Below are positions 3,929 to 28,236 of a DNA stretch of 37,118 bases, in pieces. The notes below the pieces were generated by a model. It made no database searches and was not told where the DNA came from. It saw only the letters and a list, made by a program, of their open reading frames with translations. The stretch comes from a virus (lineage: Duplodnaviria; Caudoviricetes). The DNA is taken from IMG/VR virus record IMGVR_UViG_3300005805_000219, positions 1 through 37,118 of that record; one strand, given 5' to 3'. A program made the position numbers and the translations under genes. Numbering within the stretch: the first letter of the stretch is position 1; each line of letters starts with the position of its first letter.

Positions 3929-5374
3929 CTACTCCACCTCGTATGCTGCTTTAGGATCCGTTGGATCTATTGTTGAAATTGGTTGCAATTGATTTGAAGG
4001 CAAACCCGTGTGATTCATGTCAGGTAAACCAACAGCTTCAATTACTGATTTTGGATCAAAACCTACTTGAATTAACTTGGCGGCAATATCGGCGCGAAGG
4101 TTTAGACCCACATCTTTTGCGTCCGCTGCATCGATATTTTGCAATGGAACTCGGTACTGATCTCCAGATTCTCCAAGAGGTGCTAAATCTTCTACATAAC
4201 GGACATCGTTCAGACTTAAGAAGCCTTCACGTAGACCTTTTGTATATGCATCATAACGCTCAATTGTTGTTCCACGCAGTAAAGCATCTAAATTAAACTT
4301 AATAAAACCATCTGGTTCAGGAAGCAAAGGCGATAGTGCTTGCTCTAATCTTTCAAGCAACGGTCTTAGCGAGTGTTGTACAAATGATAAGTTCTGAGCT
4401 TCAACAGATGCAAATGACATTGCGCCAGCAACAGGGTGGCCAAGCAGTGATACAGGAACACGAAATAGTCTAGCAATTTCTTCTACACCAAATCGTCGTA
4501 CTTCTAGTAGTTGTGCATCTGCAGCATTCAGAGTTAGTGGCTTAAATGTTGCGCCACTAGTTAAAATGCCAAGTTTTCCTGCGCGATAAGGTCCTGTGTG
4601 TGACATATTCCAGTTACGAGCAATATCAGCGGCTTGTTCTTCAGTCATTTCACCTGGAGATTCAATAACTCCACCAGGATTTGCTGCATTTCCAAAATAA
4701 CTTGCTGCATAAACTTCTGCGGCCATAGCAGAACCTAAAGTGATGCGAGCTGCTGCAATTGGGCCAAGTCCAAGCAATTGTCCTGGCAACTTAAACATAG
4801 GAATGTGTAGCATTTCGTTCTTTGTCAGAACCATTGTTTTTACTGACATTGGATCAAACGGTTGTGCATTGTCATAAAACTGATTTACTGGATCTTGTGC
4901 ATTTTGTCCAATAGTAACTATGTATTCAATCTCGCCCATTGGATCAGGACGACGAATACGAACTTGGAGTGGGTTTATGCAGTAAAGTTCTTGAACGTCG
5001 CCCAGATCGTCACGTACCGTTAAAATGAATGCATTGCCATGAAGGTTTAGAGAAGAAATTACTTGCTCATAAAACTCTAAGCGAGTTGAGTCAGGATTTG
5101 GTTTGTTAATCCATGCAGGCATTTCACCATATACTGATGCATAATTTATTCTAGAACGACCACGACGGACGTAAGCAGAAAGTGGTAGAGAACTAATAGT
5201 GTCACCTAATAGTCGGACACAAGCATAGACAGTTGACATACGAATTGCTGTATCAGAGTTGACATCTACTCCAGCTGGAGTTGCATATAAAGCGCGGCCA
5301 GGTAAAAATGGTTCAAGGTACTGATTGTTTGACCTTTTTTCTCCTGCTTTACGCAGTCTATTCGATAGACTCAT
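3929..5374 (-). CDS. HK97-family portal protein
   Basis: VYACVRLL, LHGNAF, EEIARLFRVP, FNLDALLRG motifs. Confidence 0.95.
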   Translation of the reverse strand: MSLSNRLRKAGEKRSNNQYLEPFLPGRALYATPAGVDVNSDTAIRMSTVYACVRLLGDTISSLPLSAYVRRGRSRINYASVYGEMPAWINKPNPDSTRLEFYEQVISSLNLHGNAFILTVRDDLGDVQELYCINPLQVRIRRPDPMGEIEYIVTIGQNAQDPVNQFYDNAQPFDPMSVKTMVLTKNEMLHIPMFKLPGQLLGLGPIAAARITLGSAMAAEVYAASYFGNAANPGGVIESPGEMTEEQAADIARNWNMSHTGPYRAGKLGILTSGATFKPLTLNAADAQLLEVRRFGVEEIARLFRVPVSLLGHPVAGAMSFASVEAQNLSFVQHSLRPLLERLEQALSPLLPEPDGFIKFNLDALLRGTTIERYDAYTKGLREGFLSLNDVRYVEDLAPLGESGDQYRVPLQNIDAADAKDVGLNLRADIAAKLIQVGFDPKSVIEAVGLPDMNHTGLPSNQLQPISTIDPTDPKAAYEVE

Positions 5375-6450
5375 TTATCTGCCTTTTCTGTGCTTAGTTG
5401 ATACCAGCCGTCGTCCCATAGAGTCAACAACCTTTGAAAGTAATCTTGATACTTAGGTGCAATTGCTTTAAGTGAGTATTTTTCTATTGCTTGCTTTCTA
5501 ATAAAATCTCTGTCAAGATCTTTTACATCTTCTGCAGCTTTGATAAAGTCCGCAAGAGATCTACATCTAAAACCAGTAATTCCATGGATATTGGTTTCTG
5601 TAAAAGCTCCCCAATCCGTTGTGATTGTTGGAGTTCCACAAGTCTGAGCTTCTACTACTATATTTCCAAATGGTTCAATATAAGTAGTAGGGGCAAATAA
5701 TGCAATGGCATTTCCCATTAGTTTTGCTCGTTCTTCAGGGCCAATATTGCCTATAAACTCGCCATAACCGGTGCCTCTTTCATCACCTGGACCTGCCAAA
5801 ATTAACCGTTTGCCTAATCGTTCACATACTTCTTGAGCAATTCTAAAACCTTTTCGCTCAATCATGCGGCCAATATAAAAGTAATAGTCACCTTTTCCTG
5901 AGCCTTTTGGAAACATTTCCGGTTCAAGATAACCATTTATAACGCCATCAAAAAATTCACCATCAACCGTGGTCGGATTCTTATAAGCTGCATAGATTGA
6001 ATGCATCCATGCATAAGATTCAAACACACGATATTTTGCAAAAGTGCCACCATAACCGATACCAAATTCTACTGACATGTGATCTGGAAAAGCATCTGCA
6101 ATCGGTTTGTGAGCATATCCACCAATAAGACAAATAAAGTCTTTTGGTTGAAGTCTATTAGTCATTTCTTTAATGACATTCCCATTAAAGATTTGCCAAT
6201 GCGGTAAAGTTGTATCAAATGAAGCAGAAGTATAATGATTATTACCAACTGCCGCTTGTCTTTCGTTTTCTGAAATACAAGTTACTAGTTCTGTTACTGA
6301 TGCTTCATTTTCTGATCCGGCATAAAGGATGACTTCATGCTCAAGATCTTTCATCATGATGCAGAAGCGCCTAACTTTTTCGGTGAATGCGCAGCTTGTA
6401 AAGTCTTTAGTCGTGTTTGTGTGTGGAAGCGATACAACGTGAAATCTCAT
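5371..6450 (-). CDS. GT-B fold glycosyltransferase (GT4-like)
   Basis: GRMIERKG and EPFGNIVVEAQTCGTPTITTDWG (EX7E) motifs. ATG at 6450 follows a GGGGGA RBS. Confidence 0.9.
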   Translation of the reverse strand: MRFHVVSLPHTNTTKDFTSCAFTEKVRRFCIMMKDLEHEVILYAGSENEASVTELVTCISENERQAAVGNNHYTSASFDTTLPHWQIFNGNVIKEMTNRLQPKDFICLIGGYAHKPIADAFPDHMSVEFGIGYGGTFAKYRVFESYAWMHSIYAAYKNPTTVDGEFFDGVINGYLEPEMFPKGSGKGDYYFYIGRMIERKGFRIAQEVCERLGKRLILAGPGDERGTGYGEFIGNIGPEERAKLMGNAIALFAPTTYIEPFGNIVVEAQTCGTPTITTDWGAFTETNIHGITGFRCRSLADFIKAAEDVKDLDRDFIRKQAIEKYSLKAIAPKYQDYFQRLLTLWDDGWYQLSTEKADK

Positions 6451-6470
6451 TGGTCCCCCGACCTTGTTCA

Positions 6471-6698
6471 CTAGAGTGCAGCGATTTCTTCTGCTGTAAG
6501 CCCAAGAGCTGCAAGTTTTGCTTCTGCTGAGGCTTTGGCAATCGCTTTGGCCTCTTCTTCTAATTTGCGTGCTTCATCTCTAGCAGCCAATTCATCAGCA
6601 ACTTTTTTATTTGCTTTGATTTCTTCTTCTGTAAAAGGACGTCGTATAACTTCACCAGTTGTGCAATTAACTTCGACGACCATAGGTTCTTCGTTCAT
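6471..6698 (-). CDS. Hypothetical protein (possible fibre chaperone/assembly factor)
   Basis: 75 aa with helical C-terminus AKLAALGLTAEEIAAL. AAGGAG RBS. Confidence 0.7.
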   Translation of the reverse strand: MNEEPMVVEVNCTTGEVIRRPFTEEEIKANKKVADELAARDEARKLEEEAKAIAKASAEAKLAALGLTAEEIAAL

Positions 6699-14898: not shown

Positions 14899-15296
14899 TA
14901 GAACACCGCTTCTGTAGGATCCCAAGCAACTGGATCTGGATTCTTAGATCTTGGAGTGCCATGATATTTTTGTACAACGATTTGCTTTGCAATAGTATCA
15001 ACCAGGACCTCATATGACGAGCGCTTATTTCCGTCTTTGTCAATCCATGTCGTTTGCTTAATTGTTCCTGTAATGGTTACCAGATCGCCTCGTTTGATGT
15101 TATCTACAAGAGCCTCGGCGTAACCACCAAACGCTTTGCATTCCCACCAACTTGTATCTGCATCTACCCATTCTTCATTAACTTTCTTGCGGGTGTTGGA
15201 CACAACGCTAAATGGAACATATGCTTTACCTTGTTGAGTAAACTTTATGTCCATATCTTTGCCGATGCGGCCTTTGATTGTTATTGCTGCACTCAT
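14898..15296 (-). CDS. ssb: Single-stranded DNA-binding protein
   Basis: OB-fold: IKFTQQGKA, WVDADTSWWECKAFG, GDLVTITG, acidic C-terminal tail. Confidence 0.9.
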   Translation of the reverse strand: MSAAITIKGRIGKDMDIKFTQQGKAYVPFSVVSNTRKKVNEEWVDADTSWWECKAFGGYAEALVDNIKRGDLVTITGTIKQTTWIDKDGNKRSSYEVLVDTIAKQIVVQKYHGTPRSKNPDPVAWDPTEAVF

Positions 15297-15571
15297 TTTT
15301 GCTCCTTTATTTGTCGGACTAGATCTTTAATGTCTTTATTTTTCATGCCACCCCATACTCCATAAACAGGCCAGTTTTTTATTGCATAACCTAAGCATGG
15401 CATTTGAACTGGACAGTCTTTGCATATGCTCAGCGCTGCTCTTTGTTCTAAATTAGTCGGATGCTCACTGTCAGGAAAAAACCAATCAGGATCTATACTC
15501 GGATCCGTACAATTAGCGTTTTTAGTCCATTCAGCCGCTTCGACTTTGAAATCTAAATCTCGAATTGTCAC
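15293..15571 (-). CDS. whiB: WhiB-family Fe-S transcription factor
   Basis: C...DWFFP...CKDCPVQMPC...YGVWGG signature. Indicates an actinobacterial host. Confidence 0.92.
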   Translation of the reverse strand: MTIRDLDFKVEAAEWTKNANCTDPSIDPDWFFPDSEHPTNLEQRAALSICKDCPVQMPCLGYAIKNWPVYGVWGGMKNKDIKDLVRQIKEQK

Positions 15572-15906
15572 AAGTAACCTGCTTCTTTCAGTAGTTGTAT
15601 CATTACGCTTACTGGAACACAAGCTGGCCAATTTTCTATATCGGCTTCACCCTGTCCATTCTGTCTTAAAACAGCGATGGGGATGACGCCTTCTTTGATT
15701 CGTTTTGCCTGTTGTTTCATTGCTGATTTTGGATCAAAGTCTGCTCTAGCCTTCAATTCCCAATCAACTCCGATAACTCCTTTTATATCTGTGCCTGCAG
15801 CTGAAGAACTGCTTGCTTCAGCATAAATCCAACCTTCTCGTTTCAAGTACTCAGCAAAGATCAGTTCGGTCTCTCGCCCTCTTCGTTTTCTAGACAGATT
15901 GGTCAT
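15568..15906 (-). CDS. Holliday junction resolvase-like PD-(D/E)xK nuclease
   Basis: RKRRGRETE...GTDI...WELKAR pattern. Confidence 0.7.
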   Translation of the reverse strand: MTNLSRKRRGRETELIFAEYLKREGWIYAEASSSSAAGTDIKGVIGVDWELKARADFDPKSAMKQQAKRIKEGVIPIAVLRQNGQGEADIENWPACVPVSVMIQLLKEAGYL

Positions 15907-16067
15907 TGTTTTCCTCCCCAACCGTCACCTTTGAAAATAGCGGGTACAGCGGTAAAAACTTTCTGCATAACTTCTCCACAATCACATCGAGGACCGTGCT
16001 CTGAGACGGAATGACTGACTTCGACTGTGATTCCACATTGTTGGCATTTGTAGTCATAAGTTGGCAT
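15903..16067 (-). CDS. FmdB-family zinc ribbon protein, 54 aa (not in ORF track)
   Basis: MPTYDYKCQQCG...CDCGEVMQKVFTAVPAIFKGDGW. Confidence 0.85.
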   Translation of the reverse strand: MPTYDYKCQQCGITVEVSHSVSEHGPRCDCGEVMQKVFTAVPAIFKGDGWGGKQ

Positions 16068-16333
16068 CATTTATCCCAGGAATTCTTAAGCCAACCTGTT
16101 CGAGTGGCTTCTGCAGGATTTGTTGTAATCCAAAAATGACATGCATGACAAAGAGCTCTACAATTGTTAATGTCCAAAATAGATCCTCCTCTAGCTCTAC
16201 TTAGAACTTCATGAACTTCTTCTGAAGCCTTTGCATTACATCTCTGGCACATTGGATATTGCTCAAGCATATATGCAACTAATTTACGCCGTTCCACATA
16301 CTTTTTTGTCATTTTTTTGCTTCGTGCTCTCAT
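16067..16333 (-). CDS. HNH-like endonuclease
   Basis: CQRC...EVHEVLSRARGGSILDINNCRALCHACH. Confidence 0.75.
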   Translation of the reverse strand: MRARSKKMTKKYVERRKLVAYMLEQYPMCQRCNAKASEEVHEVLSRARGGSILDINNCRALCHACHFWITTNPAEATRTGWLKNSWDK

Positions 16334-16683
16334 GTGTATTGACCAACACCTTCTGCGCTAAATTGTTGTCTAATTGCAGCTGACAGTGATTGTCCAATAG
16401 AGATTTGAGATCTTAAAGTATTGATTCGTTCTTTAATTGCCCTTACTTCTGCTTCTGCAATTTCCATCGCTAAACGTAAATCAGCACAAGCAAGAATCGC
16501 TTCTTGTCGCCTTACATCCATGGATCCATTTGATTGTAGAAAGGATCTTGCATATGCAACTTCGTAAGAACCTTTTGCTTTAACTGCTTTGTCATCACAA
16601 ACAGCAATTTCTTCAGTTGCAGCATCAAGCATACGAGAAAGTTCACTAAGTCGCTTTACAACTTCTGTTTGATTAGGCAACAC
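16330..16683 (-). CDS. Coiled-coil hypothetical protein
   Basis: 117 aa helical ORF translationally coupled to its neighbours. Confidence 0.6.
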   Translation of the reverse strand: MLPNQTEVVKRLSELSRMLDAATEEIAVCDDKAVKAKGSYEVAYARSFLQSNGSMDVRRQEAILACADLRLAMEIAEAEVRAIKERINTLRSQISIGQSLSAAIRQQFSAEGVGQYT

Positions 16684-16807
16684 GGCGTTTGCCTTTCTGT
16701 TTTGCTTTGCAATCGTTGCAAAAATGAGGATTACCCATGAGTTTATCTAATGCGTATAAATAAGTCCATGCCCCACATGCTTCACATCTAGCAACTGGTT
16801 CAGTCAT
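16673..16807 (-). CDS. Small zinc-finger protein, 44 aa (not in ORF track)
   Basis: MTEPVARCEACG...FCNDCK. Fills the gap between adjacent genes. Confidence 0.6.
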   Translation of the reverse strand: MTEPVARCEACGAWTYLYALDKLMGNPHFCNDCKAKQKGKRRVA

Positions 16808-17609
16808 TGATTTTACCTGCCAAGAATCTTTCGAAACGAGTCAATTGATCTGGTATGTTGCCTTTGAGAATAGATCTTGCGGTATGACTGATTTCACCAA
16901 TGCTATTTCCGGTCCACATAGGCTCGTAATCTTTGAATGAGCCATTAAAGTAGGCTTTAATCCATTGTGCTTGAGGTATGTGTTCATCATAAATGTGTAA
17001 ACTACCTACAACATGCACATATTGACCCATTTCAATGTCTAAAGCTTTTGCAATTGCACCTTGTAGAGCAATAAATTGTGTTAAATCATATGGAAGACCT
17101 AAAAATACGTCGTTGCTTCTCATATTAGTTCTAGCAATCAATTTGTTATCTCTGATAAAATATTGCAAGTTCAAGGTACATGGAACATCTTTAACATCAA
17201 CGTTAAGATCTTTATTTGAGTCAAATATAGTCAAAACAGCTTGTCTGGTTGAATAGTCTTTTTTCAATTGCTCAACAAGTTTATTTAGATTACCGTGAAT
17301 TCGTGGACCATAAGCGCCATGGAGAATGCCACCATCCATGTACTTTCCAAACACTTGACTTGTATCTGTCATTGCTTCTGGATCAGTAACTTGTCCAACT
17401 AGTTGTAATGCTTCTTTAATGCCAATATTATGGTTTAGTTTACGGTTTTCCATAGACACAGGTATGTTCCATGGCTTTTCAACCTGTAAAGTAACATTTA
17501 GAAGCTCTCTGGTAACCATTCCACGAGGTGAAATTGCCTCACCATGTTCAATCACATATTGAGTTGCAAGTTCTAAAGCTTCACTTGGATTTTCTGTAAT
17601 TATATGCAT
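16800..17609 (-). CDS. Thymidylate synthase-superfamily enzyme, probably dCMP (hydroxy)methylase
   Basis: GAYGPRI, TRQAV, catalytic DVPCT, MRSNDVFLGLPYD (Asp where ThyA has Asn), GSLHIY. Confidence 0.85.
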   Translation of the reverse strand: MHIITENPSEALELATQYVIEHGEAISPRGMVTRELLNVTLQVEKPWNIPVSMENRKLNHNIGIKEALQLVGQVTDPEAMTDTSQVFGKYMDGGILHGAYGPRIHGNLNKLVEQLKKDYSTRQAVLTIFDSNKDLNVDVKDVPCTLNLQYFIRDNKLIARTNMRSNDVFLGLPYDLTQFIALQGAIAKALDIEMGQYVHVVGSLHIYDEHIPQAQWIKAYFNGSFKDYEPMWTGNSIGEISHTARSILKGNIPDQLTRFERFLAGKIND

Positions 17610-18052
17610 TACCTAACCACCTCACTATGGATTATTTTTTTGTCTAAATATCGAACTTGTCTAAATGCTTCTACAAATAAAGATCTAGAATGCAAAACAA
17701 AATCTATTTGCATTTCTTCGCCTCTTCTTAATAATTCTTCAGCAATTGCATCTTCAGATCTTGTAAGTAGGATTAGTCTAGCACCTAACTTAGCAAGTTC
17801 CCAATTACAATAGTCAAATGTCGTTTCATCAAATAGTGATTGTCGACCGTATATTTTAGGCCATACAACTTCACCTAAATGCCAACGATCTAAAATCATA
17901 TTTGGTGAGGTAATTGGTCGGATATATTCATCAGACCATAACCTTGTTTTTGGTTGTTCAGCATGTAAATATTTTGCATTAAATCGTTCAGATAATTTTT
18001 GAGCATAAGTAGTTTTACCTGTACCATCTGCGCCTTCGATAATGGTAATCAT
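17609..18052 (-). CDS. Deoxynucleoside monophosphate kinase (dTMP kinase-like)
   Basis: P-loop EGADGTGKTT and ILDRW motif. Confidence 0.85.
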   Translation of the reverse strand: MITIIEGADGTGKTTYAQKLSERFNAKYLHAEQPKTRLWSDEYIRPITSPNMILDRWHLGEVVWPKIYGRQSLFDETTFDYCNWELAKLGARLILLTRSEDAIAEELLRRGEEMQIDFVLHSRSLFVEAFRQVRYLDKKIIHSEVVR

Positions 18053-18936
18053 CTAAACTCACCCCATTCTCTAAAACTATCGACTTGTGAATGGACCATT
18101 GTAACTGGTTTTACGTCACCTGCTACATTCCATACTAAAGTTGATGCTGTTTTAGGTGCTGCTGTTTTGTCCAACATAAATCTTTCTAAACCTTTGCAAT
18201 CATAGGTTGGTGCTGAGTCAATTTCTTCATTGATCTTGTCTGCATAGTCAGCTTTTTCTCTGAAACCTTTATGGTACGTTGCAACGTCCGCTCTTCCGAT
18301 TTCACCTGGATGTAGATTTCTTGCAACTGCGACTCCGTGGAAGATGGCATTTGGCCATGCAATTTGTAAAGTTCTTGTAAGTACTCCTGTACTAATGACT
18401 GATACAACATCTCTTGGTTCATCTCGATCTCCCCATTGTTGGATTGTTGATTTGACTCCAGCTGCGACCACTAATGGATGATCCAATCCAAAAGGTACGA
18501 ATTGAGCATTGTTTTCATTTGCCCAATCTTTTGCGTATTTGTTTAGAACTGGCATTGCTGCGATTCTTCGAAAGATTGGATTTGCTCCTCTTTCAATACA
18601 AACAAGCTGATGGTCACTTACTACTTTTGAGGAAGGCATAAACAATGTTAACTTTTTGTTATATTTCTTTGCAAGTGCGGCTAATGATACTCCTGCCCAA
18701 CCAACTCTAGGTTGGACATATACCAAATGATCTGATTCCATTGTTTTTACTAATAGATCTCCCCACCGGCCTTTTGTACCAACTCCTGTATTTGAATCGT
18801 CCCAAATAGTTGCACCATGGAATGTAGTTATATTTGGTGGTTGAGTTTCATCTGTCCAATCACCCGCAAGATCTAGCCATTCTTCTCTTGATTTGTGTGC
18901 ATACTTGCTTGATGTGTCCGTCGTTATCTTAAACAC
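18049..18936 (-). CDS. PLP-dependent enzyme, fold type II (Trp synthase beta/cysteine synthase-like)
   Basis: GTKGR (putative PLP Lys), GWAGVSLAALAKKY, LFMP, STGVL phosphate loop, YDCK, WNVAG. Confidence 0.7.
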   Translation of the reverse strand: MFKITTDTSSKYAHKSREEWLDLAGDWTDETQPPNITTFHGATIWDDSNTGVGTKGRWGDLLVKTMESDHLVYVQPRVGWAGVSLAALAKKYNKKLTLFMPSSKVVSDHQLVCIERGANPIFRRIAAMPVLNKYAKDWANENNAQFVPFGLDHPLVVAAGVKSTIQQWGDRDEPRDVVSVISTGVLTRTLQIAWPNAIFHGVAVARNLHPGEIGRADVATYHKGFREKADYADKINEEIDSAPTYDCKGLERFMLDKTAAPKTASTLVWNVAGDVKPVTMVHSQVDSFREWGEFR

Positions 18937-19981
18937 CGTGCGCCTCCAAATGTTTGTGGTAAGTCCAATGTTTCGTATGATTTGGTATAAGTGATTTGTT
19001 TGTTACCTGCCAAGGTTTCAAGTACTCATAACCTTTTGGTACATAACATTCAACATATCGGACGTAGTCGCATGCAACATCTTCAAGACTTAAACCTTTG
19101 CCTAGATTTCTTTCATGGTCACGAGAATCATACGGAGATCTAAACTCATTACAAATCTTTTCCATTGCAGCATCTAAAAAGTCTTTTTGCTTATAACCTT
19201 CGTTTTTGAACAATAGATTTAATGCTTCGATTGCATTCTTACCATAATTGACTTGACTCCATGGATCTATTAAATCAGGGAAATATTGTGCAATGTCCAT
19301 AACAAATGCAGTCATTACAAAATGAAAACACTTTAATCCATTTGACCTGTGCCATTCGTTAATCCAATCAACTCCTTCACGAATTGACATTGATAATGGA
19401 TTATAGGATAAATGAGTATAAAAATCTTTTACTAACCGTGGCATATATTCAGAAATGTATAATTGTGAACCACGTGGGTATTGATCCGTTGGTTTTGGAA
19501 ATTGTGGAATCTGATTGCCAATACTAGTAAATATCGGTCTACCTGATCTCATTTCACTCAAAACATAATTCCTCATGTGAATCATATTATCTGCATTTAT
19601 AGCCATATCAGCTAAAATGCTATTTCTAAATCCATGGTCGTAACTGAATGATGCTCCTGATCCGGTAACTCTATGAATCATAAACAAATAAAACCAGTCC
19701 ATTGCATGTAAATTGTAATTGTCAAAACGTTTATCTACTTGCCACTTCTTTGGATTGTTTGATCCGTACCAAATCTGTTGAATTGCATTACTAAATCCGG
19801 CAAACTCACGGTCAACTGTGTCATAAATTGTAATGTGATGTTGTAGCGGATCATCTACATGCAAATCTTCAGTAGTATCACGACCATTTGGACTTGCAAT
19901 GTTGATTGTTTGCAAGACGACGGCTTTATCGTAATATTGCTTAAAGTCTTCCCAATAGATTGTCTCAATAATTTGGGGCAT
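18929..19981 (-). CDS. aGPT-Pplase1/5-hmdU DNA kinase helical-domain-like DNA-modifying enzyme (putative)
   Basis: Motif order IYDTVDRE...FVMD...YGKNAIEAL...LEDVACDYVRY resembles this helical superfamily, and the gene context fits. Confidence 0.5.
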   Translation of the reverse strand: MPQIIETIYWEDFKQYYDKAVVLQTINIASPNGRDTTEDLHVDDPLQHHITIYDTVDREFAGFSNAIQQIWYGSNNPKKWQVDKRFDNYNLHAMDWFYLFMIHRVTGSGASFSYDHGFRNSILADMAINADNMIHMRNYVLSEMRSGRPIFTSIGNQIPQFPKPTDQYPRGSQLYISEYMPRLVKDFYTHLSYNPLSMSIREGVDWINEWHRSNGLKCFHFVMTAFVMDIAQYFPDLIDPWSQVNYGKNAIEALNLLFKNEGYKQKDFLDAAMEKICNEFRSPYDSRDHERNLGKGLSLEDVACDYVRYVECYVPKGYEYLKPWQVTNKSLIPNHTKHWTYHKHLEAHGV

Positions 19982-20963
19982 TTTTCACCAAATCCCATTC
20001 ATAAAACTCTGGAGATAAATGTACGGATCCAGGTTTTTCCATATAAGTTTTAGCATAATCTTCAGGATCTATGATGTACCAATTTGTTGGCCACTCGTGT
20101 ACGTTCTCAAATTGATATTTCATTTCGTTAGTCATAATGCCCATCAGTCTATCTCTTGATGGCCAAGACCCATAAAATGCTGTTCCCTTATAGAATCCAG
20201 TCTTAGGTATTTTTCTTTCTTCATGCTCAATTGGATATGGAGCAGTTACCTCAAAAGTTCCTATTTTTCCTGTTTGTTGTAACCACTCAAGTTGAATTTT
20301 TAGTGTAGTAACTAGTTTTCTTGCCGCTCCTTCTGGATCTAATTGCCGGCATAAATGATGACGAATGTCGACATTGCCTGCATAAATAACTAAATGCGGC
20401 ACAAAATAGTCAGGTAAATATGAACTGACTCCTCGTTCAGTTAATCCGTGAAGTGTCAAACCGTCATGGCGATAAACAACAGTGTTTGCTCTATATCTAG
20501 AAATTGAATGTGAGTCACCAATAACTACTCGTTGAATATCTAAAACTAGATCTTCATGCTTAATTACTTCACATTTCATTAGATCACGAATCTTAGACCA
20601 TTCTGATTCAGTAAAATCAAAATCAGTTTTTGCAGCACGTGGACGCAAGATTCTTTCAATGTCTCCAATTGGCATGTCCAAAGCTTTGATATTTACAAGA
20701 TCCATATCCAATACTCTGGCAATTCTATCTCTTGTTTCTCTAGTATAACCACCAAATAGATTAAAAACTTCACCTTTGAACTCCATTGGCGTTGATACTA
20801 ACCATGTGCCTTCTTTGACAAGTTCGTCATTATTAAAAGCAATTTCAGATTTAGTATTGAAAGCATTGTCGACCATACATTTCTGCATTCTTGGCCAAGC
20901 AGATCTATGACTAGCAATTCGATCTGTAAATGAAGTAACTACATCATCTAGTATGTATCTCAT
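19965..20963 (-). CDS. SGNH-hydrolase-fold protein of unknown function in modification cluster
   Basis: VVIGDSHS (block I), YAGNVD (block III), GSVHLS (block V). Confidence 0.55.
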   Translation of the reverse strand: MRYILDDVVTSFTDRIASHRSAWPRMQKCMVDNAFNTKSEIAFNNDELVKEGTWLVSTPMEFKGEVFNLFGGYTRETRDRIARVLDMDLVNIKALDMPIGDIERILRPRAAKTDFDFTESEWSKIRDLMKCEVIKHEDLVLDIQRVVIGDSHSISRYRANTVVYRHDGLTLHGLTERGVSSYLPDYFVPHLVIYAGNVDIRHHLCRQLDPEGAARKLVTTLKIQLEWLQQTGKIGTFEVTAPYPIEHEERKIPKTGFYKGTAFYGSWPSRDRLMGIMTNEMKYQFENVHEWPTNWYIIDPEDYAKTYMEKPGSVHLSPEFYEWDLVKNAPNY

Positions 20964-21391
20964 TCTATATGCTCACAAGCAATAGGAGTACAAAGAACAG
21001 CTGCATCATCAAAAGCTCGTCCACAAGTTTTACACTTGCCTTCAACTCCATCGTAACCAGCTAATTGACGTTTTGCATTTTTCTCTGCTTTTGCAAAATA
21101 AACATCTAAGATTTCTTGTTCATTGACATTTGTTACAAGAATTAAATTGCACCAAAAGTGAAGTACATCAATCATTTCTCCAATAAATGCCAACCGATTT
21201 ATATGTCTACTAGTAGCCCATGGCTTCCAACCAGTTTCATTCAAAGCCTCATGCAATTCGTCTGTCAATGCTAATGACATGTCACGGATATACTGAGCTC
21301 TTTCTTCGTCATTCAGAGTGGTAACGTCCACTCCATATGACTTAAGTTGTAGTTTTCTTTGATTGTCCAAAATCATTTGTAAAGCACTCAC
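20960..21391 (-). CDS. All-alpha dimeric dUTPase/dCTPase (T4 gp56-like)
   Basis: DELHEAL...WKPW...EMIDVLHF...YFAKAEKNAKRQ..GY. Confidence 0.85.
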   Translation of the reverse strand: MSALQMILDNQRKLQLKSYGVDVTTLNDEERAQYIRDMSLALTDELHEALNETGWKPWATSRHINRLAFIGEMIDVLHFWCNLILVTNVNEQEILDVYFAKAEKNAKRQLAGYDGVEGKCKTCGRAFDDAAVLCTPIACEHIE

Positions 21392-21813
21392 GGTTTTACC
21401 TCCTGTTTTAGTGAAATATTAAATGTTCTTGCTAATTCAGCAATGGCACCGAGATCGTAAACCGTTCCATCTATCAGATCAGAATACATAACGGAAGTAA
21501 TTCCATAACTAGCAATTACTTTTATACATTCAGAACATGGATGATGCGTACAATACATATAGCCATTTTTTGTTTGATCTGGAGTGCAATAACGCAATGC
21601 GTTCACCTCTGCGTGTATTACAAAACCACGCCTAGCGTCCCTATCTTCCCACGGAATCGTGACGCCAGGCGCAGCCCCATTGTAGCCGATGCTTATTATG
21701 CTTCTATCCCCGCGTAGAACACATGCACCAACTTTTAGATATGGATCTTCACTGCGATAGGAGGCTGCTCTCGCAATCTCCAATCCATATTTGTCCCAAG
21801 ACATTCGAGTCAT
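21388..21813 (-). CDS. dCMP deaminase
   Basis: KVGAC, GYNG, HAEVNAL and PCSEC zinc motifs. Confidence 0.92.
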   Translation of the reverse strand: MTRMSWDKYGLEIARAASYRSEDPYLKVGACVLRGDRSIISIGYNGAAPGVTIPWEDRDARRGFVIHAEVNALRYCTPDQTKNGYMYCTHHPCSECIKVIASYGITSVMYSDLIDGTVYDLGAIAELARTFNISLKQEVKP

Positions 21814-22361
21814 GACTCAACAACCGCCAGGTGTTTGATGATAAGAGCAATCTCATCATCAGTCAAGTCACTACTCGAACTTATTTCACGACTTACTAGG
21901 CCGCGTACTGCCGCTAGAATAGCATCCTTCTCCGTGATGCCTTTTATTCCTAGCAACTCTACTATTTGCTTCAAACCAGGATTTGCACGTTTCATCATAA
22001 CTTTATCTGGTTTGTTGCGTTCAATTGCAAGTTCGACTTCCTCTTTGGTTGCAATTGCTTTATCGATACCAATACCTAAAGCACCAATAGCTCGACCCCA
22101 ACAACTGGTTTCAAGATTTTGTATTTCACTTCCTCTAGTAAAGTTGGTTTTTCCTGGTAAATATTCCTGAGCTGTGCCTATACCAGGCTTTTCATCATTA
22201 GGATGACGATAAGCGTATGCTCGTCCAATTACAATTATCTGATCTCCAACAGTCTGGAATTGCAGATCTGGATCCATTTGCAACGAACCTTCTGGATACT
22301 TCTCATAAAACAATTTAATTCTATGAGGTACATCTACATAATTTTCAAGACGCTTGTCCAT
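21810..22361 (-). CDS. Putative single-strand annealing/recombination protein
   Basis: YVDV..RI, NLETSCWGRAIGALGIG. Directly downstream of the exonuclease. Confidence 0.55.
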   Translation of the reverse strand: MDKRLENYVDVPHRIKLFYEKYPEGSLQMDPDLQFQTVGDQIIVIGRAYAYRHPNDEKPGIGTAQEYLPGKTNFTRGSEIQNLETSCWGRAIGALGIGIDKAIATKEEVELAIERNKPDKVMMKRANPGLKQIVELLGIKGITEKDAILAAVRGLVSREISSSSDLTDDEIALIIKHLAVVES

Positions 22362-23112
22362 TTAATCCCCCTATTTGTGTCAATAAACTTTCAATGTGTT
22401 CTAATCTGTTTGCCAAATCGATGACAGTTAAAAATGAATCCCATGCTAAGTCTGCATCTGTCACTTCATGAAATGTTGTGCCATTTTCAGATACATGAAC
22501 GATTCCTAGTCCATCAAGAGTTGGCAAAGATCTTTCAATGCCTTCTTCATCAAGATAAAAATCTGCATTGGCATATGCCGCAATCTGCATTGCCATTTCA
22601 CCGTAAACTCCTGCGCTGGTTTTCCAATCGCAGAGATATGTCTTGCCAGCTAATGGACCATTGCCAAACTTAAGAATTGCATCAAAAGTACCAGCATAAC
22701 CGTGAACTCTGTTTGCTACAACTTTCTCAGTCAATACAGGAATTACTTCCCATTGATCTAACCATTCTACATAGCCATTGACATATTCAGCAAACTCTCC
22801 AGCGACTTCTGCTTCTCCACCATGAATGATAGTTTCAGCAATAGAATGGATCTCTGTTCCTCGTGCTCCAGCTTTGTCTCTTTGATTCCAAGGAATCATT
22901 TTTAAGAACTTGACAGCTTCTTCACGTTCACGGTTAATTAGATTAGGAAGGTTTGCAAAATTGTCATAGACATATTCTGCGACCAATTTTGCACTCCAAT
23001 ATGGAAGTGCAGGTTTCGGCATACCAGATCCAATAAGAGTGGTAACACCTTTGACAGGTTGGCCATCAAGAACATACTTATGACCACGCTTTGTTTCAAT
23101 GCGTTCTAGTCC
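22345..23112 (-). CDS. PD-(D/E)xK exonuclease (RecB/Cas4/YqaJ-like)
   Basis: RGTEIH, YAGTFD, DWKTS, QIAAY motifs. Confidence 0.88.
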   Translation of the reverse strand, partial: GLERIETKRGHKYVLDGQPVKGVTTLIGSGMPKPALPYWSAKLVAEYVYDNFANLPNLINREREEAVKFLKMIPWNQRDKAGARGTEIHSIAETIIHGGEAEVAGEFAEYVNGYVEWLDQWEVIPVLTEKVVANRVHGYAGTFDAILKFGNGPLAGKTYLCDWKTSAGVYGEMAMQIAAYANADFYLDEEGIERSLPTLDGLGIVHVSENGTTFHEVTDADLAWDSFLTVIDLANRLEHIESLLTQIGGLNGQAS

Positions 23113-23441
23113 CATGAGCTCTTCAAAGTTCTCTTGGTAAAGAAGTTAGCAAGTCCTTTTTCGTTTGCCTCAATTAGTCTTGAGTATCGACTTGCATAAT
23201 TATTAGAAATAGCAAATTGCTCCCCCGAAGACCTAATTCCAATTTCCCATCGTAGTTTGTTGATTAACAAATCGATGGAACAAATATCGTGACCTGCTGA
23301 TTTCCATTGATAAGCAAGATCAACTAGTTGACGATAGATGTGTGGATTTTCATGATGAAACTTGTTGAACTGTTCATCAATCGGATCTGCCAATAAAGAT
23401 AATTGCTTTGGTTCAAACCATTCCCTGGCGGTTTCTGACAT
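23106..23441 (-). CDS. Hypothetical protein
   Basis: 111 aa, FHHENP...LRWE...NNYASRYSR. Confidence 0.7.
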   Translation of the reverse strand: MSETAREWFEPKQLSLLADPIDEQFNKFHHENPHIYRQLVDLAYQWKSAGHDICSIDLLINKLRWEIGIRSSGEQFAISNNYASRYSRLIEANEKGLANFFTKRTLKSSWD

Positions 23442-26269: not shown

Positions 26270-26324
26270 GGACGAAACACTCCGCAAGGAGTGTCCAGTG
26301 TTAAATGACACTGCTGATGAGTCC
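26270..26324 (+). ncRNA. Type II hammerhead ribozyme
   Basis: GGAC-GAAA-CACTCC(GCAA)GGAGTG-TC-CAGTGTT(AAAT)GACACTG-CTGATGA-GTCC. All core nucleotides and three stems are present, with a GUC cleavage triplet at 26293-26295. Confidence 0.93.
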
Positions 26325-26351
26325 ATCAGAATAAATCGCCAGGAGGAAAAA

Positions 26352-27320
26352 ATGTCAGTACAAATCCAAAACGCAGCACGTCGCAAGGCTCCATGGATCA
26401 GTACAGCAACATGGGTAAATACAAGTGACGAGCAAATCTCTGCAGCTCAAGTTCTTGAGAATGCAAATCTTGATTGGGAAGTTCAACACACTCCACTTTC
26501 AACTACAGCAATTAACAATGACGGCGTGACAGTCGTCAAACTTCAAGACAAAGTTGCTACAACTCGTGTCAATAAGGACGGATCAGCTTCTGTTCTTGGT
26601 ATCACTTCTCCTACATATACAATTGTCCAGAATAACGACATCGTCAACATTGTGGACTCTGTTATGTACGAAGCCGGTGCAATTTACCAGTCAGCTGGTG
26701 AACTACGCGGTGGAAAAAAGATCTTTATGGCTGCAAAGCTTCCAGACACATTAGATCTTACTCTTAAGAATATCGATCCAATCGAATCATTCTTAGTTGC
26801 TTCAAATACTCACGATGGAACAGATTCACTTCGCTTTGAAATCAAGTATCTTCGCTTGATCTGCACAAACGGAATGACTCGTTGGACGAATGCTTCATCT
26901 ATTGCTTTCCGTCATTCAGCTCGTATGAGTGTCAAGATCGAAGATGTTCGTGAGACTCTAGGAGTTGTTCTTAAGTCAAATCAAGAGTTCAACCTTCTAT
27001 CTTCTGCTCTTCTTGAGAAGAAAGTTGCTAATTCTGACTTCTGGTCAATCGTCAAGGACGTTCTTCCACTAGATGAGAACAACATGACTGAGCGTCAACA
27101 GAATAATGTTCGTGAACGTCAGCAGACTCTTCTAGGTATCTGGAACGGACCAACTCAAGAAAACATCAAAGGAACTGCATGGGGAATTGTCAATGCATTC
27201 ACAGAGTACGAACAATGGACTCGTACAACTCGTTCAGCCAATGATTTTGCAGCTGGTGAGCGATTCATGATGAATCAAGGAACATCTCTCTCAGATCGAG
27301 TCTTGGAGATGGTTCGCTAA
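26352..27320 (+). CDS. DUF932/DUF945-family phage/plasmid protein
   Basis: ANLDWEV, YTIVQN, SAGELRGGKKIF, NTHDG, RLICTNG, GTAWGIVNAFTEY motifs. Confidence 0.85.
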   Translation: MSVQIQNAARRKAPWISTATWVNTSDEQISAAQVLENANLDWEVQHTPLSTTAINNDGVTVVKLQDKVATTRVNKDGSASVLGITSPTYTIVQNNDIVNIVDSVMYEAGAIYQSAGELRGGKKIFMAAKLPDTLDLTLKNIDPIESFLVASNTHDGTDSLRFEIKYLRLICTNGMTRWTNASSIAFRHSARMSVKIEDVRETLGVVLKSNQEFNLLSSALLEKKVANSDFWSIVKDVLPLDENNMTERQQNNVRERQQTLLGIWNGPTQENIKGTAWGIVNAFTEYEQWTRTTRSANDFAAGERFMMNQGTSLSDRVLEMVR

Positions 27321-27373: not shown

Positions 27374-27970
27374 TTAATCTAGAAATGCAATGTGATTTTT
27401 TCCAGCTTTTGTCTGTAAGGCTATTTGGACTTGACCACCACTATTGATATCGAATCGGATTGCTGTTTTAACCGCTTGTTCTAAGATCTCGATTGCTTCT
27501 TCATATTCATCTGCTTCATCAATTCCTAGCGCATGAGCAGCTCCAAGAGCAAGTTTGGCGCCTGTTCCTGTGGTGTAAACCTTGTCTTTTGTCTTCTCTA
27601 ATCCATAAACTTCATCGATAAAGTACAAAGTTCCATTGACGGCAACTATGAAATCATTCTCAAACGATGATGGATAGCCTTCAGACTTAATGTCATAACC
27701 TGAGATTCCAAAGGTTTTACGTAGATTTGGCACAAACTGAGTTACCATAAATCTATCTAGATTTTTAGATCTTGGAGGCGCCGGTGGATTAAAAGCATGT
27801 TGGATCAGATTCATGCCTCGGACTAAACCTGCAGCAGAAACTAAGTATTTGCCATTTTCAGCAATTTTGCCCATAGGAGAACAATCAGCTCTCATGTCAT
27901 AACCAGTTGTTTGCGTATCTGCAGCAATGATGCAATAGTCATCATGTTGGTATGCAATGAGTGTTGTCAT
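27374..27970 (-). CDS. Ntn-hydrolase, proteasome beta/HslV-like peptidase
   Basis: M-TTLIA N-terminal Thr, IAADTQ, K at ~33, GTGAKLALGA, DINSGG. Confidence 0.8.
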   Translation of the reverse strand: MTTLIAYQHDDYCIIAADTQTTGYDMRADCSPMGKIAENGKYLVSAAGLVRGMNLIQHAFNPPAPPRSKNLDRFMVTQFVPNLRKTFGISGYDIKSEGYPSSFENDFIVAVNGTLYFIDEVYGLEKTKDKVYTTGTGAKLALGAAHALGIDEADEYEEAIEILEQAVKTAIRFDINSGGQVQIALQTKAGKNHIAFLD

Positions 27971-28236
27971 TATTCCTCCGTAGCCAGTTCTCCGCCAATA
28001 GCCATATAAGCTGCACCATCTACCCAACCATCTAATTTCTCAGGTGATTGGACTAATCGAGCAACTTTGACTTGATTCATACATAATGCAACTTGCCAAG
28101 GTTCTACGGTAATGCCTAAAACTACACTCCAAAGCTTTGCAATGCGGTCATGGTTCTCTTGTGGAGTTCCATAATCTGCTTGCCTATCGTTATAAATTAA
28201 ATGTGTTGCTTCATCTAAGATCTCTTTGCGATTCAT
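27970..28236 (-). CDS. DUF6378-like protein
   Basis: DRQADYGTPQENHDRIAKLWS...VKVAR...DGWVDGAAY. Confidence 0.75.
   Translation of the reverse strand: MNRKEILDEATHLIYNDRQADYGTPQENHDRIAKLWSVVLGITVEPWQVALCMNQVKVARLVQSPEKLDGWVDGAAYMAIGGELATEE

Follow-up and report, generated by a model that had tools for sequence, protein, structure and literature searches.

A candidate cytosine hypermodification cluster with an SGNH-fold protein in a tailed-phage genome

Phages ViI (which carries 5-NeOmdU), M6 and PaMx11 modify their DNA by a route that comprises a dUMP hydroxymethylase, a 5-hydroxymethyl-dU (5-hmdU) DNA kinase (5-HMUDK), an aGPT-Pplase2 or amino acid:DNA transferase (AADT), and a pyridoxal phosphate (PLP)-dependent decarboxylase (PMC8989533). 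The amino acid and amine adducts in the work cited here are all on thymine and all kinase-initiated (PMC8989533, PMC13458397, PMC11472151), including the transfer of diaminopropane, in a paper whose main text contains neither 'cytosine' nor 'SGNH' (PMC13458397). Hypermodification of cytosine is typically a sugar transfer (2026 paper, PMC13326640). In the 5-hydroxymethylcytosine (hmC) pathway of the T-even phages, gp42 dCMP hydroxymethylase acts together with gp56 dCTPase, gp1 kinase, cd, and alpha/beta-glucosyltransferases. Aeromonas phages 44RR2.8t (44RR), 31 and 25 carry gene 42 along with denB and alc but lack homologs of the glucosyltransferases, and the further modification of their hmC is described as unknown (PMC2993671). 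Here we analyze a cluster of seven genes in the virus record IMGVR_UViG_3300005805_000219 (Duplodnaviria; Caudoviricetes), which is 37,118 bp long, is classed as linear with a CheckV completeness of 100%, and is referred to in its whole length as the window. The cluster probably represents a variant of pyrimidine hypermodification with a cytosine target and a new activation step.

An earlier note, made from the sequence alone, had described seven translationally coupled genes at 16800..21813, and all seven open reading frames (ORFs) are present there on the minus strand, each overlapping the next (by 4, 4, 17, 8, 4 and 1 bp in order from the deaminase to the thymidylate synthase (TS) homolog). 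Upstream, the coupling runs on into recombination genes (21810-23115), so that the seven genes belong to a longer unit. The families assigned in that note to the deaminase, the WKPW pyrophosphatase, the dNMP kinase, the TS homolog and the fold-type II PLP enzyme agree with the profile matches listed here, and its SGNH fold was recovered in the predicted structure only. The genes are:

21388..21813, minus strand: dCMP/dCTP deaminase family protein (HAE...PCxxC; PF00383, E 4.5e-19; phrog_174, E 4.5e-37)
20960..21391, minus strand: all-alpha dNTP pyrophosphatase, T4 gp56-like, predicted dCTPase/dUTPase (PF08761, E 1.5e-12; WKPW)
19965..20963, minus strand: two-domain protein with a beta-glucosyltransferase (BGT)-like N-terminal domain (about residues 1-100) and an SGNH-fold C-terminal domain (about residues 140-325) (AlphaFold2 model, predicted local distance difference test score (pLDDT) 93.6)
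18929..19981, minus strand: helical protein of 350 aa with a predicted two-bundle helix-hairpin-helix (HhH) glycosylase fold, divergent aGPT-Pplase/amino-acid:DNA-transferase-like (AlphaFold2 model, pLDDT 96.4)
18049..18936, minus strand: fold-type II PLP enzyme of the M6 gp52 decarboxylase family (phrog_7093, E 3.5e-28)
17609..18052, minus strand: small P-loop dNMP-kinase-like protein of 147 aa, predicted hmdCMP kinase (phrog_761, thymidylate kinase, E 1.4e-9)
16800..17609, minus strand: TS homolog with the signature of a 5-hmdCMP synthase (PF00303, E 1.9e-21)

With the ViI/M6/PaMx11 route the cluster shares a TS-homolog precursor route, a predicted HhH-fold transferase with a Glu/Cys motif, and a PLP enzyme of the M6 gp52 PHROG, but its TS homolog has D177 instead of N177, it includes neither a 5-HMUDK nor a radical-SAM enzyme among the seven genes, its putative transferase lies outside PF18723, PF18724 and PF18746 by sequence, and it has an obligate SGNH partner. 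With the T-even pathway it shares the D143/D177 TS, the gp56-like pyrophosphatase, the dNMP kinase, the deaminase and the BGT-like N-domain, whereas it contains no DNA glucosyltransferase, its BGT-like domain is joined to one of the SGNH type, and no phage polymerase was found. The 5-hmC carbamoyltransferase found by MetaGPA resembles the proposed system in placing a non-sugar acyl-type group on the 5-hydroxymethyl oxygen and in being encoded beside a TS homolog, but it belongs to another enzyme family, and SGNH, GDSL, PALP, aGPT and pyridoxal are not mentioned in the main text of that report (PMC8670742). Finally, the uncharacterized ORF233c of the cultured Aeromonas phages 44RR2.8t and 31 combines an SGNH domain, which shows 32% identity over 323 aa, with a Pplase-type helical part that has the E-x3-C motif; these phages also have a gp42-type D177 TS. 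The differences are that the helical half of ORF233c is PF18723-like and has no detectable sequence likeness to the window clade, that its neighbour is a sodium:solute symporter, and that no PLP gene was present among the neighbours tested.

In TS homologs, Asp at position 177 of ThyA indicates dCMP as the substrate, an acidic residue at 143 a hydroxymethyl product, and Asn at 169 a 5-hydroxy-dCMP product (PMC13326640). When aligned with controls, the TS homolog in the window has D141 (ThyA143), C144, T145, D167 (ThyA169) and D175 (ThyA177), which conforms to the rules for dCMP (D177) and hydroxymethylation (D143) with the catalytic Cys and Asp169 kept. Its residues thus predict an enzyme making 5-hmdCMP; a 5-hydroxy-dCMP synthase was rejected because Asp169 is retained, and a dUMP hydroxymethylase of the N177 type because of the Asp at 177. 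The D143/D177 pair was found in all 27 aligned TS homologs from SGNH-bearing genomes, namely 25 IMG/VR genomes (the window's own included) and Aeromonas phages 44RR and 25; the search covered 30 IMG/VR records, of which three were fragments without a TS and two had TS matches left out of the alignment. In the same alignment, ThyA-177 is N in the 5-hydroxymethyluracil (hmU)-type controls M6, PaMx11, May and YungSlug, and D in phage G gp319. The profile of the pyrophosphatase family matched T4 gp56 with E 4.7e-20, and the single sequence did so with E 2.2e-8. Judging from its family, the deaminase is a likely source of dUMP for dTMP that would also reduce the dC pool; contigs with modified cytosine commonly encode a deaminase adjoining a D177 TS (10.1101/2024.12.05.627091).

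The pathway that we propose, to which we give slightly less than an even chance, consists of activation of hmC by the SGNH protein, exchange of the resulting ester for an amino acid by the helical transferase, and a final decarboxylation by the PLP enzyme. The TS homolog would convert dCMP into hmdCMP and the kinase would convert this into hmdCDP, while the gp56-like pyrophosphatase and the deaminase would deplete dCTP. No phage DNA polymerase was found (PF00476 was absent, and none of the 12 ORFs of at least 300 aa matched a polymerase family over the catalytic domain in Pfam and PHROG searches), so that the host replicase must accept hmdCTP, which it would incorporate, perhaps replacing C only partly. 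A PHROG labelled as polymerase matched a window protein only via a collagen repeat. On the DNA, the BGT-like N-domain would bind hmC, and the site formed by Ser151 and His315 would acylate the hydroxymethyl group, most simply with acetyl, to create a leaving group. Cys304 of the helical protein would then attack C6 and expel the carboxylate via an exocyclic methylene, and a nucleophile would add at the C5 methylene. The adduct would keep a free alpha-amine for the PLP enzyme, which would decarboxylate it. Which amino acid and which acyl donor are used can only be guessed, with serine as one option among several for the former; a serine adduct would yield 5-(2-aminoethoxy)methyl-dC, which corresponds on cytosine to the base of ViI. 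The modification would likely shield C-containing sites from host nucleases.

The SGNH fold of the C-terminal domain was seen with Foldseek (E 3e-5) and VIA (Z 13.6, root-mean-square deviation (rmsd) 2.8, 166 aligned residues), and Pfam gave no match for the protein at E<=0.1. The SGNH blocks I (GDS), II (G), III (N) and V (H) correspond to S151, G168, N197 and H315, which are conserved in 124, 95, 94 and 123, respectively, of 124 diverse homologs; several Arg and His residues are also near-invariant. The N-domain was related to six BGT-family sequences with an hhalign probability of 97.7 (E 2.4e-12; at most 9.7 for 17 decoys and 0.84 for 40 shuffles), and to T4 BGT alone with a probability of 90 when the alignment of 124 diverse sequences was used. 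Narrow alignments gave little or no signal (hhalign probabilities of 2.7 and 11.8; hidden Markov model (HMM) score below the shuffles), and PF09198 matched two of 125 homologs, both below the cut-off. N68-L-F-G-G aligns with N70-F-F-G-G, the base-flipping loop of BGT. A glucosyltransferase was rejected as the function of the whole protein, because its C-terminal domain is of the SGNH type and not a sugar-nucleotide-binding GT-B domain. On the basis of the model we propose that the protein is an hmC O-acyltransferase. The usual D-x-x-H aspartate is missing (G312 in the window protein; of 102 homologs, 84 have Gly at this position and 17 have Arg), and the fold alone shows no reaction direction, which both count against this proposal; SGNH enzymes with dyad variants exist.

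The need for an activating enzyme other than a DNA kinase is suggested by the gene content of these genomes. The 5-hmdU DNA kinase family (PF18748/phrog_800) was detected in the controls M6, PaMx11 and May (3/3, E<=4.8e-32), and phrog_800 had no match in the window's own genome. Among 32 SGNH-bearing genomes, many of which are fragments, phrog_800 gave nothing in 21 and weak matches (E 2e-5 to 1e-3) in 11. The annotation of the control kinases is 'terminase small subunit' both in the records (L156:11686-12249 for M6, L155:11218-11787 for PaMx11 and L084:839-1501 for May) and in phrog_800. The sole Walker A motif of the window lies in the dNMP-kinase-like gene. Two complete genomes with terminal repeats (G023 and G024) keep the SGNH, helical, PLP and TS genes and lack both kinase families, and a Walker A scan of G024 found no small kinase; the small kinase is thus unlikely to be an obligatory activator. 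The earlier note had joined a T4-like precursor route to ViI/M6-like chemistry. The D143/D177 residues, the helical fold and the PLP family uphold this combination, whereas no recognizable gene was found for the 5-hmdU DNA kinase that ViI/M6 chemistry needs, and the SGNH protein with its BGT-like N-domain probably supplies the activation.

Wherever an IMG/VR locus with the helical gene has 2.5 kb or more of flanking sequence on each side, it also contains the SGNH and PLP genes (46 of 46 such loci, out of 79 fetched; many are near-identical contigs from one clade), and this clustering is far beyond chance. The three middle genes occur together in small siphovirus-like genomes, T7-like genomes and contigs of >100 kb, usually near a D177 TS. 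Five GTDB contigs, all from metagenome-assembled genomes or bins, carry the helical gene, and four of them also carry the SGNH, PLP and D177 TS genes. SGNH motifs were estimated to occur in about 990 IMG/VR stretches, with 474 clusters at 50% identity matching. In 15 representatives of at least 420 aa, SGNH was fused to the window-type helical clade in seven and to a PF18723-like clade in two. SGNH genes without a nearby helical gene were found at L146, L153, L154 and in phage 25, and the reverse was not seen; this one-way dependence of the helical gene on SGNH fits SGNH acting first. Given a cytosine core and a helical C5-methylene transferase, we regard the SGNH protein as a reasonably likely activator.

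Alternatively, the same amino-acid-derived hmC may be made with the SGNH protein serving late in the route as a tailoring acyltransferase, or else as an esterase for editing, and with activation by the small kinase on DNA, by a host enzyme, or by the helical enzyme using hmC directly. The PaMx11 pathway ends with an acetyltransferase (PMC8989533), which would be a precedent for such a late step. SGNH folds are mostly hydrolases, and 12 of the 14 near-complete virus records contain a member of the dNMP-kinase-like family. The SGNH gene of phage 25 and its like stands beside sugar-transfer genes with no 44RR-type helical domain or other helical partner found, which fits tailoring too and weighs against the proposed pathway. 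This alternative is nevertheless unlikely in our judgment, since the helical gene was never seen without SGNH in the 46 loci, both kinase families are absent in G023 and G024, and the kinase matches the dNMP-kinase family and not the 5-HMUDK family. The BGT-like N-domain also suggests plain hmC-DNA as the substrate.

For the helical protein, the best of 48,161 solved chains in VIA was PaMx11 gp46 (8z2m; Z 10.5, rmsd 4.1, 215 aligned residues, 6% identity), a glycine:DNA transferase with E243/C247 (PMC11472151), and ranks 2-12 were all glycosylase-type folds. In BFVD, the top match was labelled amino acid:DNA transferase (ADDT; E 1.5e-17, TM 0.81), followed by Pplase1-type proteins. The motif E300-D301-x2-C304-D305 is invariant in 123 of 123 sequences, and its E-x3-C spacing equals that of gp46 E243/C247. 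The resemblance of 18929-19981 to DNA-modifying helical enzymes, as expected in the earlier note, was seen in the predicted structure only, and the match to PF18723, PF18724 or PF18746 did not materialize: Pfam (E<=0.1) and PHROG gave no match for the window protein, and none of the three families was found at E<=0.5 in 10 helical homologs. The protein has 415 metagenomic homologs. It had no tblastn match in 50,697 phage records, so that no cultured phage with the exact helical clade was found, and Foldseek of the model against PDB gave nothing at E<=0.001. The ESM Atlas returned unnamed viral clusters and one GDSL lead for these proteins, and nothing for the N-domain of the SGNH protein. Matches to uS15 in PDB-sequence profile searches with the helical and SGNH alignments were set aside as chance, and nothing else in those searches was credible. 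We consider it likely that the helical protein is a C5-methylene group transferase, which would work like an AADT yet stands outside PF18723, PF18724 and PF18746 by sequence.

The PLP enzyme falls into phrog_7093, which also contains M6 gp52, and the direct hhalign comparison with M6 gp52 was modest (probability 63, E 7e-5). The PALP match was weak (E 0.004, below the cut-off). K55, the presumed Schiff-base lysine, is invariant in 102 of 102 sequences and aligns with the lysine motif of cysteine synthase. By analogy, the enzyme may decarboxylate an amino-acid:base adduct, as the PLP family in M6 and ViI decarboxylates adducts that have a free alpha-amine (PMC8989533). A radical-SAM isomerase step precedes decarboxylation in M6 and is unneeded in ViI, where serine is O-linked (PMC8989533); because no radical-SAM isomerase is present among the seven genes, we infer that the amino acid is linked through its side chain. 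PLP homologs in Erythrobacter and Microcystis phages were set aside, because their context is one of ParB/methylase genes. In Erythrobacter phage R6L (L003:6885-9307) and Microcystis phage Mae-JY30 (L004:6381-8699), the related PLP domain is fused or adjacent to ParB and DNA-methylase-like domains, and these loci are possibly another base-modification system.

The system might also be cytosine-based with the helical protein acting as a glycosylase, a base-exchange or a repair enzyme, and with O-acyl-hmC or another base free of amino acid as the product. Several results weigh on this side and against a transferase. The Z of 10.5 was obtained at 6% identity, and Z under ~13 can be generic for helical proteins. 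DUF2419, a queuine-salvage glycosylase, and AGOG/HhH-type glycosylases come next at Z 7.9 and below. The likeness of the Glu/Cys motif to that of gp46 is one of spacing along the sequence. Sequence likeness to aGPT-Pplase1/2 is non-significant (HMM E>0.2; hhalign probability <=3.7), and in L146 and L154 the SGNH gene directly adjoins a D177 TS with the helical gene absent. We nevertheless find this alternative improbable: the E-x3-C motif is invariant, the proteins ranked highest in PDB and BFVD are of the amino-acid:DNA transferase or Pplase kind, and the helical gene is constantly partnered by a PLP enzyme that belongs with M6 gp52.

The nature of the modified base was further considered, as an indirect test, from palindrome avoidance, by comparing observed/expected (O/E) ratios between nine near-complete relatives lacking the cluster and 15 cluster-bearing genomes (a six-genome set around this phage and nine others). 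The relatives, G030-G038 (L311-L328), have TerL 75-82% and capsid 72-76% identical to those of the window phage and lack all seven genes; the phage's own genome was the positive control in the searches that established this absence. In eight of these nine relatives, 33 four-mer palindromes had O/E <0.5 and every one of them contains C, including the T-free CCGG, GGCC and CGCG, and G030-G038 showed near-total avoidance of ACGT, CATG, CCGG, AGCT or GATC. In the 15 cluster-bearing genomes there were three such cases, namely TTAA (0 of 80 expected) and GATC in G010 and ATAT (12 of 124 expected) in G009, two of the three being AT-only. For six-mers, the mean O/E in the six-genome set, the nine others and the cluster-less relatives was 0.68, 0.63 and 0.22 for GC-only, 0.87, 0.87 and 0.61 for mixed, and 0.48, 0.70 and 0.57 for AT-only palindromes, respectively. 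Relief from palindrome avoidance thus tracks C, not T. Some features limit the weight of this comparison: AT-only four-mers also differ slightly (0.92 and 0.90 versus 0.85 in the cluster-less relatives), GATC is wholly missing in G010 (0 of 108 expected) despite the cluster, the genomes, of phages with no assigned host, fall into few clades and are non-independent, so that p-values are overstated, and plain hmC could yield the same pattern. Taken with the residues of the TS homolog, the modified base very probably has a cytosine core.

A thymine-derived base would arise if the deaminase turned hmdCMP or hmdCTP into hmdU and the three enzymes decorated hmU as in ViI and M6. The cluster does encode a deaminase, some deaminases linked to D177-type TS can deaminate hmdC (10.1101/2024.12.05.627091), and the characterized transferases of this fold all act at T positions (PMC8989533, PMC13458397, PMC11472151). 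The hmU route is therefore a real though minor rival, and we rate it as quite improbable, since T-free palindromes are relieved of avoidance and AT-only six-mers are not, ThyX was found in two of the 15 cluster-bearing genomes, and the N-domain is BGT-like. In addition, the cultured phages that bear SGNH, namely 44RR, 31 and 25, have a canonical TS as well as three genes of the hmC system, gene 42, denB and alc (PMC2993671). That the cluster serves nucleotide supply only, with at most plain hmC and with the middle genes working in cell-surface or small-molecule chemistry, is very improbable: SGNH and PALP folds often serve in the metabolism of the envelope and of amino acids, but the three genes stay linked across diverse genomes, usually near a D177 TS, and two of the three middle proteins have DNA-enzyme domains.

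Taken jointly, a cytosine core, a helical transferase and an SGNH activator come close to, and do not quite reach, an even chance. No chemistry or modified-base data were found in the literature for any member of the system, which also tells against the proposed pathway.

A second class of loci that contain SGNH genes was observed in large phages (L101-L152, e.g. L114:9950-15107 and L122:9938-15111). It consists of genes for SGNH, myo-inositol-1-phosphate synthase (PF01658), a small HAD-like ORF (labelled from its motif), FkbM methyltransferase, a PF18723-like helical protein (E-x3-C) and a dNTP pyrophosphatase. A TS match was obtained in a single genome of this class (G001), which contains both a D177 TS and a canonical one, and in P0382 the FkbM, helical and SGNH domains are fused. 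In Aeromonas phage 44RR2.8t (ORF234c-233c, L001:7408-11388), the SGNH-helical fusion adjoins the sodium:solute symporter, a possible importer of the donor. The helical part of this fusion was found in 19 records, from Aeromonas phages only. In Aeromonas phage 25 (L002:6776-10047), the SGNH gene is preceded by a UDP-galactopyranose mutase gene (PF03275, E 5e-54) and by an ORF of 358 aa that carries no annotation; this ORF may be a glycosyltransferase, without Pfam support, and the arrangement suggests a galactofuranosyl-type hmC modification. Tentatively, and with the balance somewhat against it, these loci could be read as a widespread platform in which BGT-N/SGNH proteins activate 5-hmC by ester formation and interchangeable HhH-fold transferases add different nucleophiles. 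On this tentative reading, the nucleophile might be an amino acid with PLP trimming in the window and an inositol-type polyol in the second class.

Outside the pathway, the window has the head genes of a tailed phage (HK97-type portal, protease, capsid and terminase in Pfam/PHROG searches) and no terminal repeat. Other features of the window are:

15293..15631, minus strand: WhiB gene (PF02467, E 9.2e-16)
5371-6471, minus strand: GT1-family glycosyltransferase, with the portal gene on one side and collagen-like tail genes on the other
26298-27320, plus strand: DUF932 protein, the sole long plus-strand gene with a family match
27374-28027, minus strand: HslV/proteasome-like peptidase

The WhiB gene points to an actinobacterial host. 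The GT1 gene was rejected as a pathway member, because it has no homolog in the searched flanks and is present in three of the nine cluster-less relatives. The GC content is 36-38% across the cluster (window 16001-22000) and 40-50% in most of the genome, a weak hint that the cluster is an acquired module. Parts of the cluster were found in 20 runs from 13 studies, mostly labelled freshwater. A metatranscriptome run covering all 30 bins was set aside as evidence for expression, because its contigs (one of 9.5 kb) may be DNA.

The literature searched contained no description of this system, of an amino-acid-modified cytosine or of an SGNH enzyme in DNA modification; Iyer et al. 2013, who reportedly defined the aGPT-Pplase clades, may list such neighbourhoods. 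One published survey gathered its contigs via the 5-HMUDK gene (PMC8989533) and would thus have missed kinase-free clusters. The cluster predicts a new base together with a new activation chemistry and, if the proposal is true, no amino-acid-derived cytosine in DNA and no SGNH enzyme with a DNA base as its substrate would precede those made or encoded here. An hmC-specific pair of acyltransferase and transferase could serve as a tool for labelling 5hmC. For the phages themselves, this chemistry is a candidate answer to what 44RR, 31 and 25, which have gene 42 and no T4-type glucosyltransferase (PMC2993671), place on their hmC.

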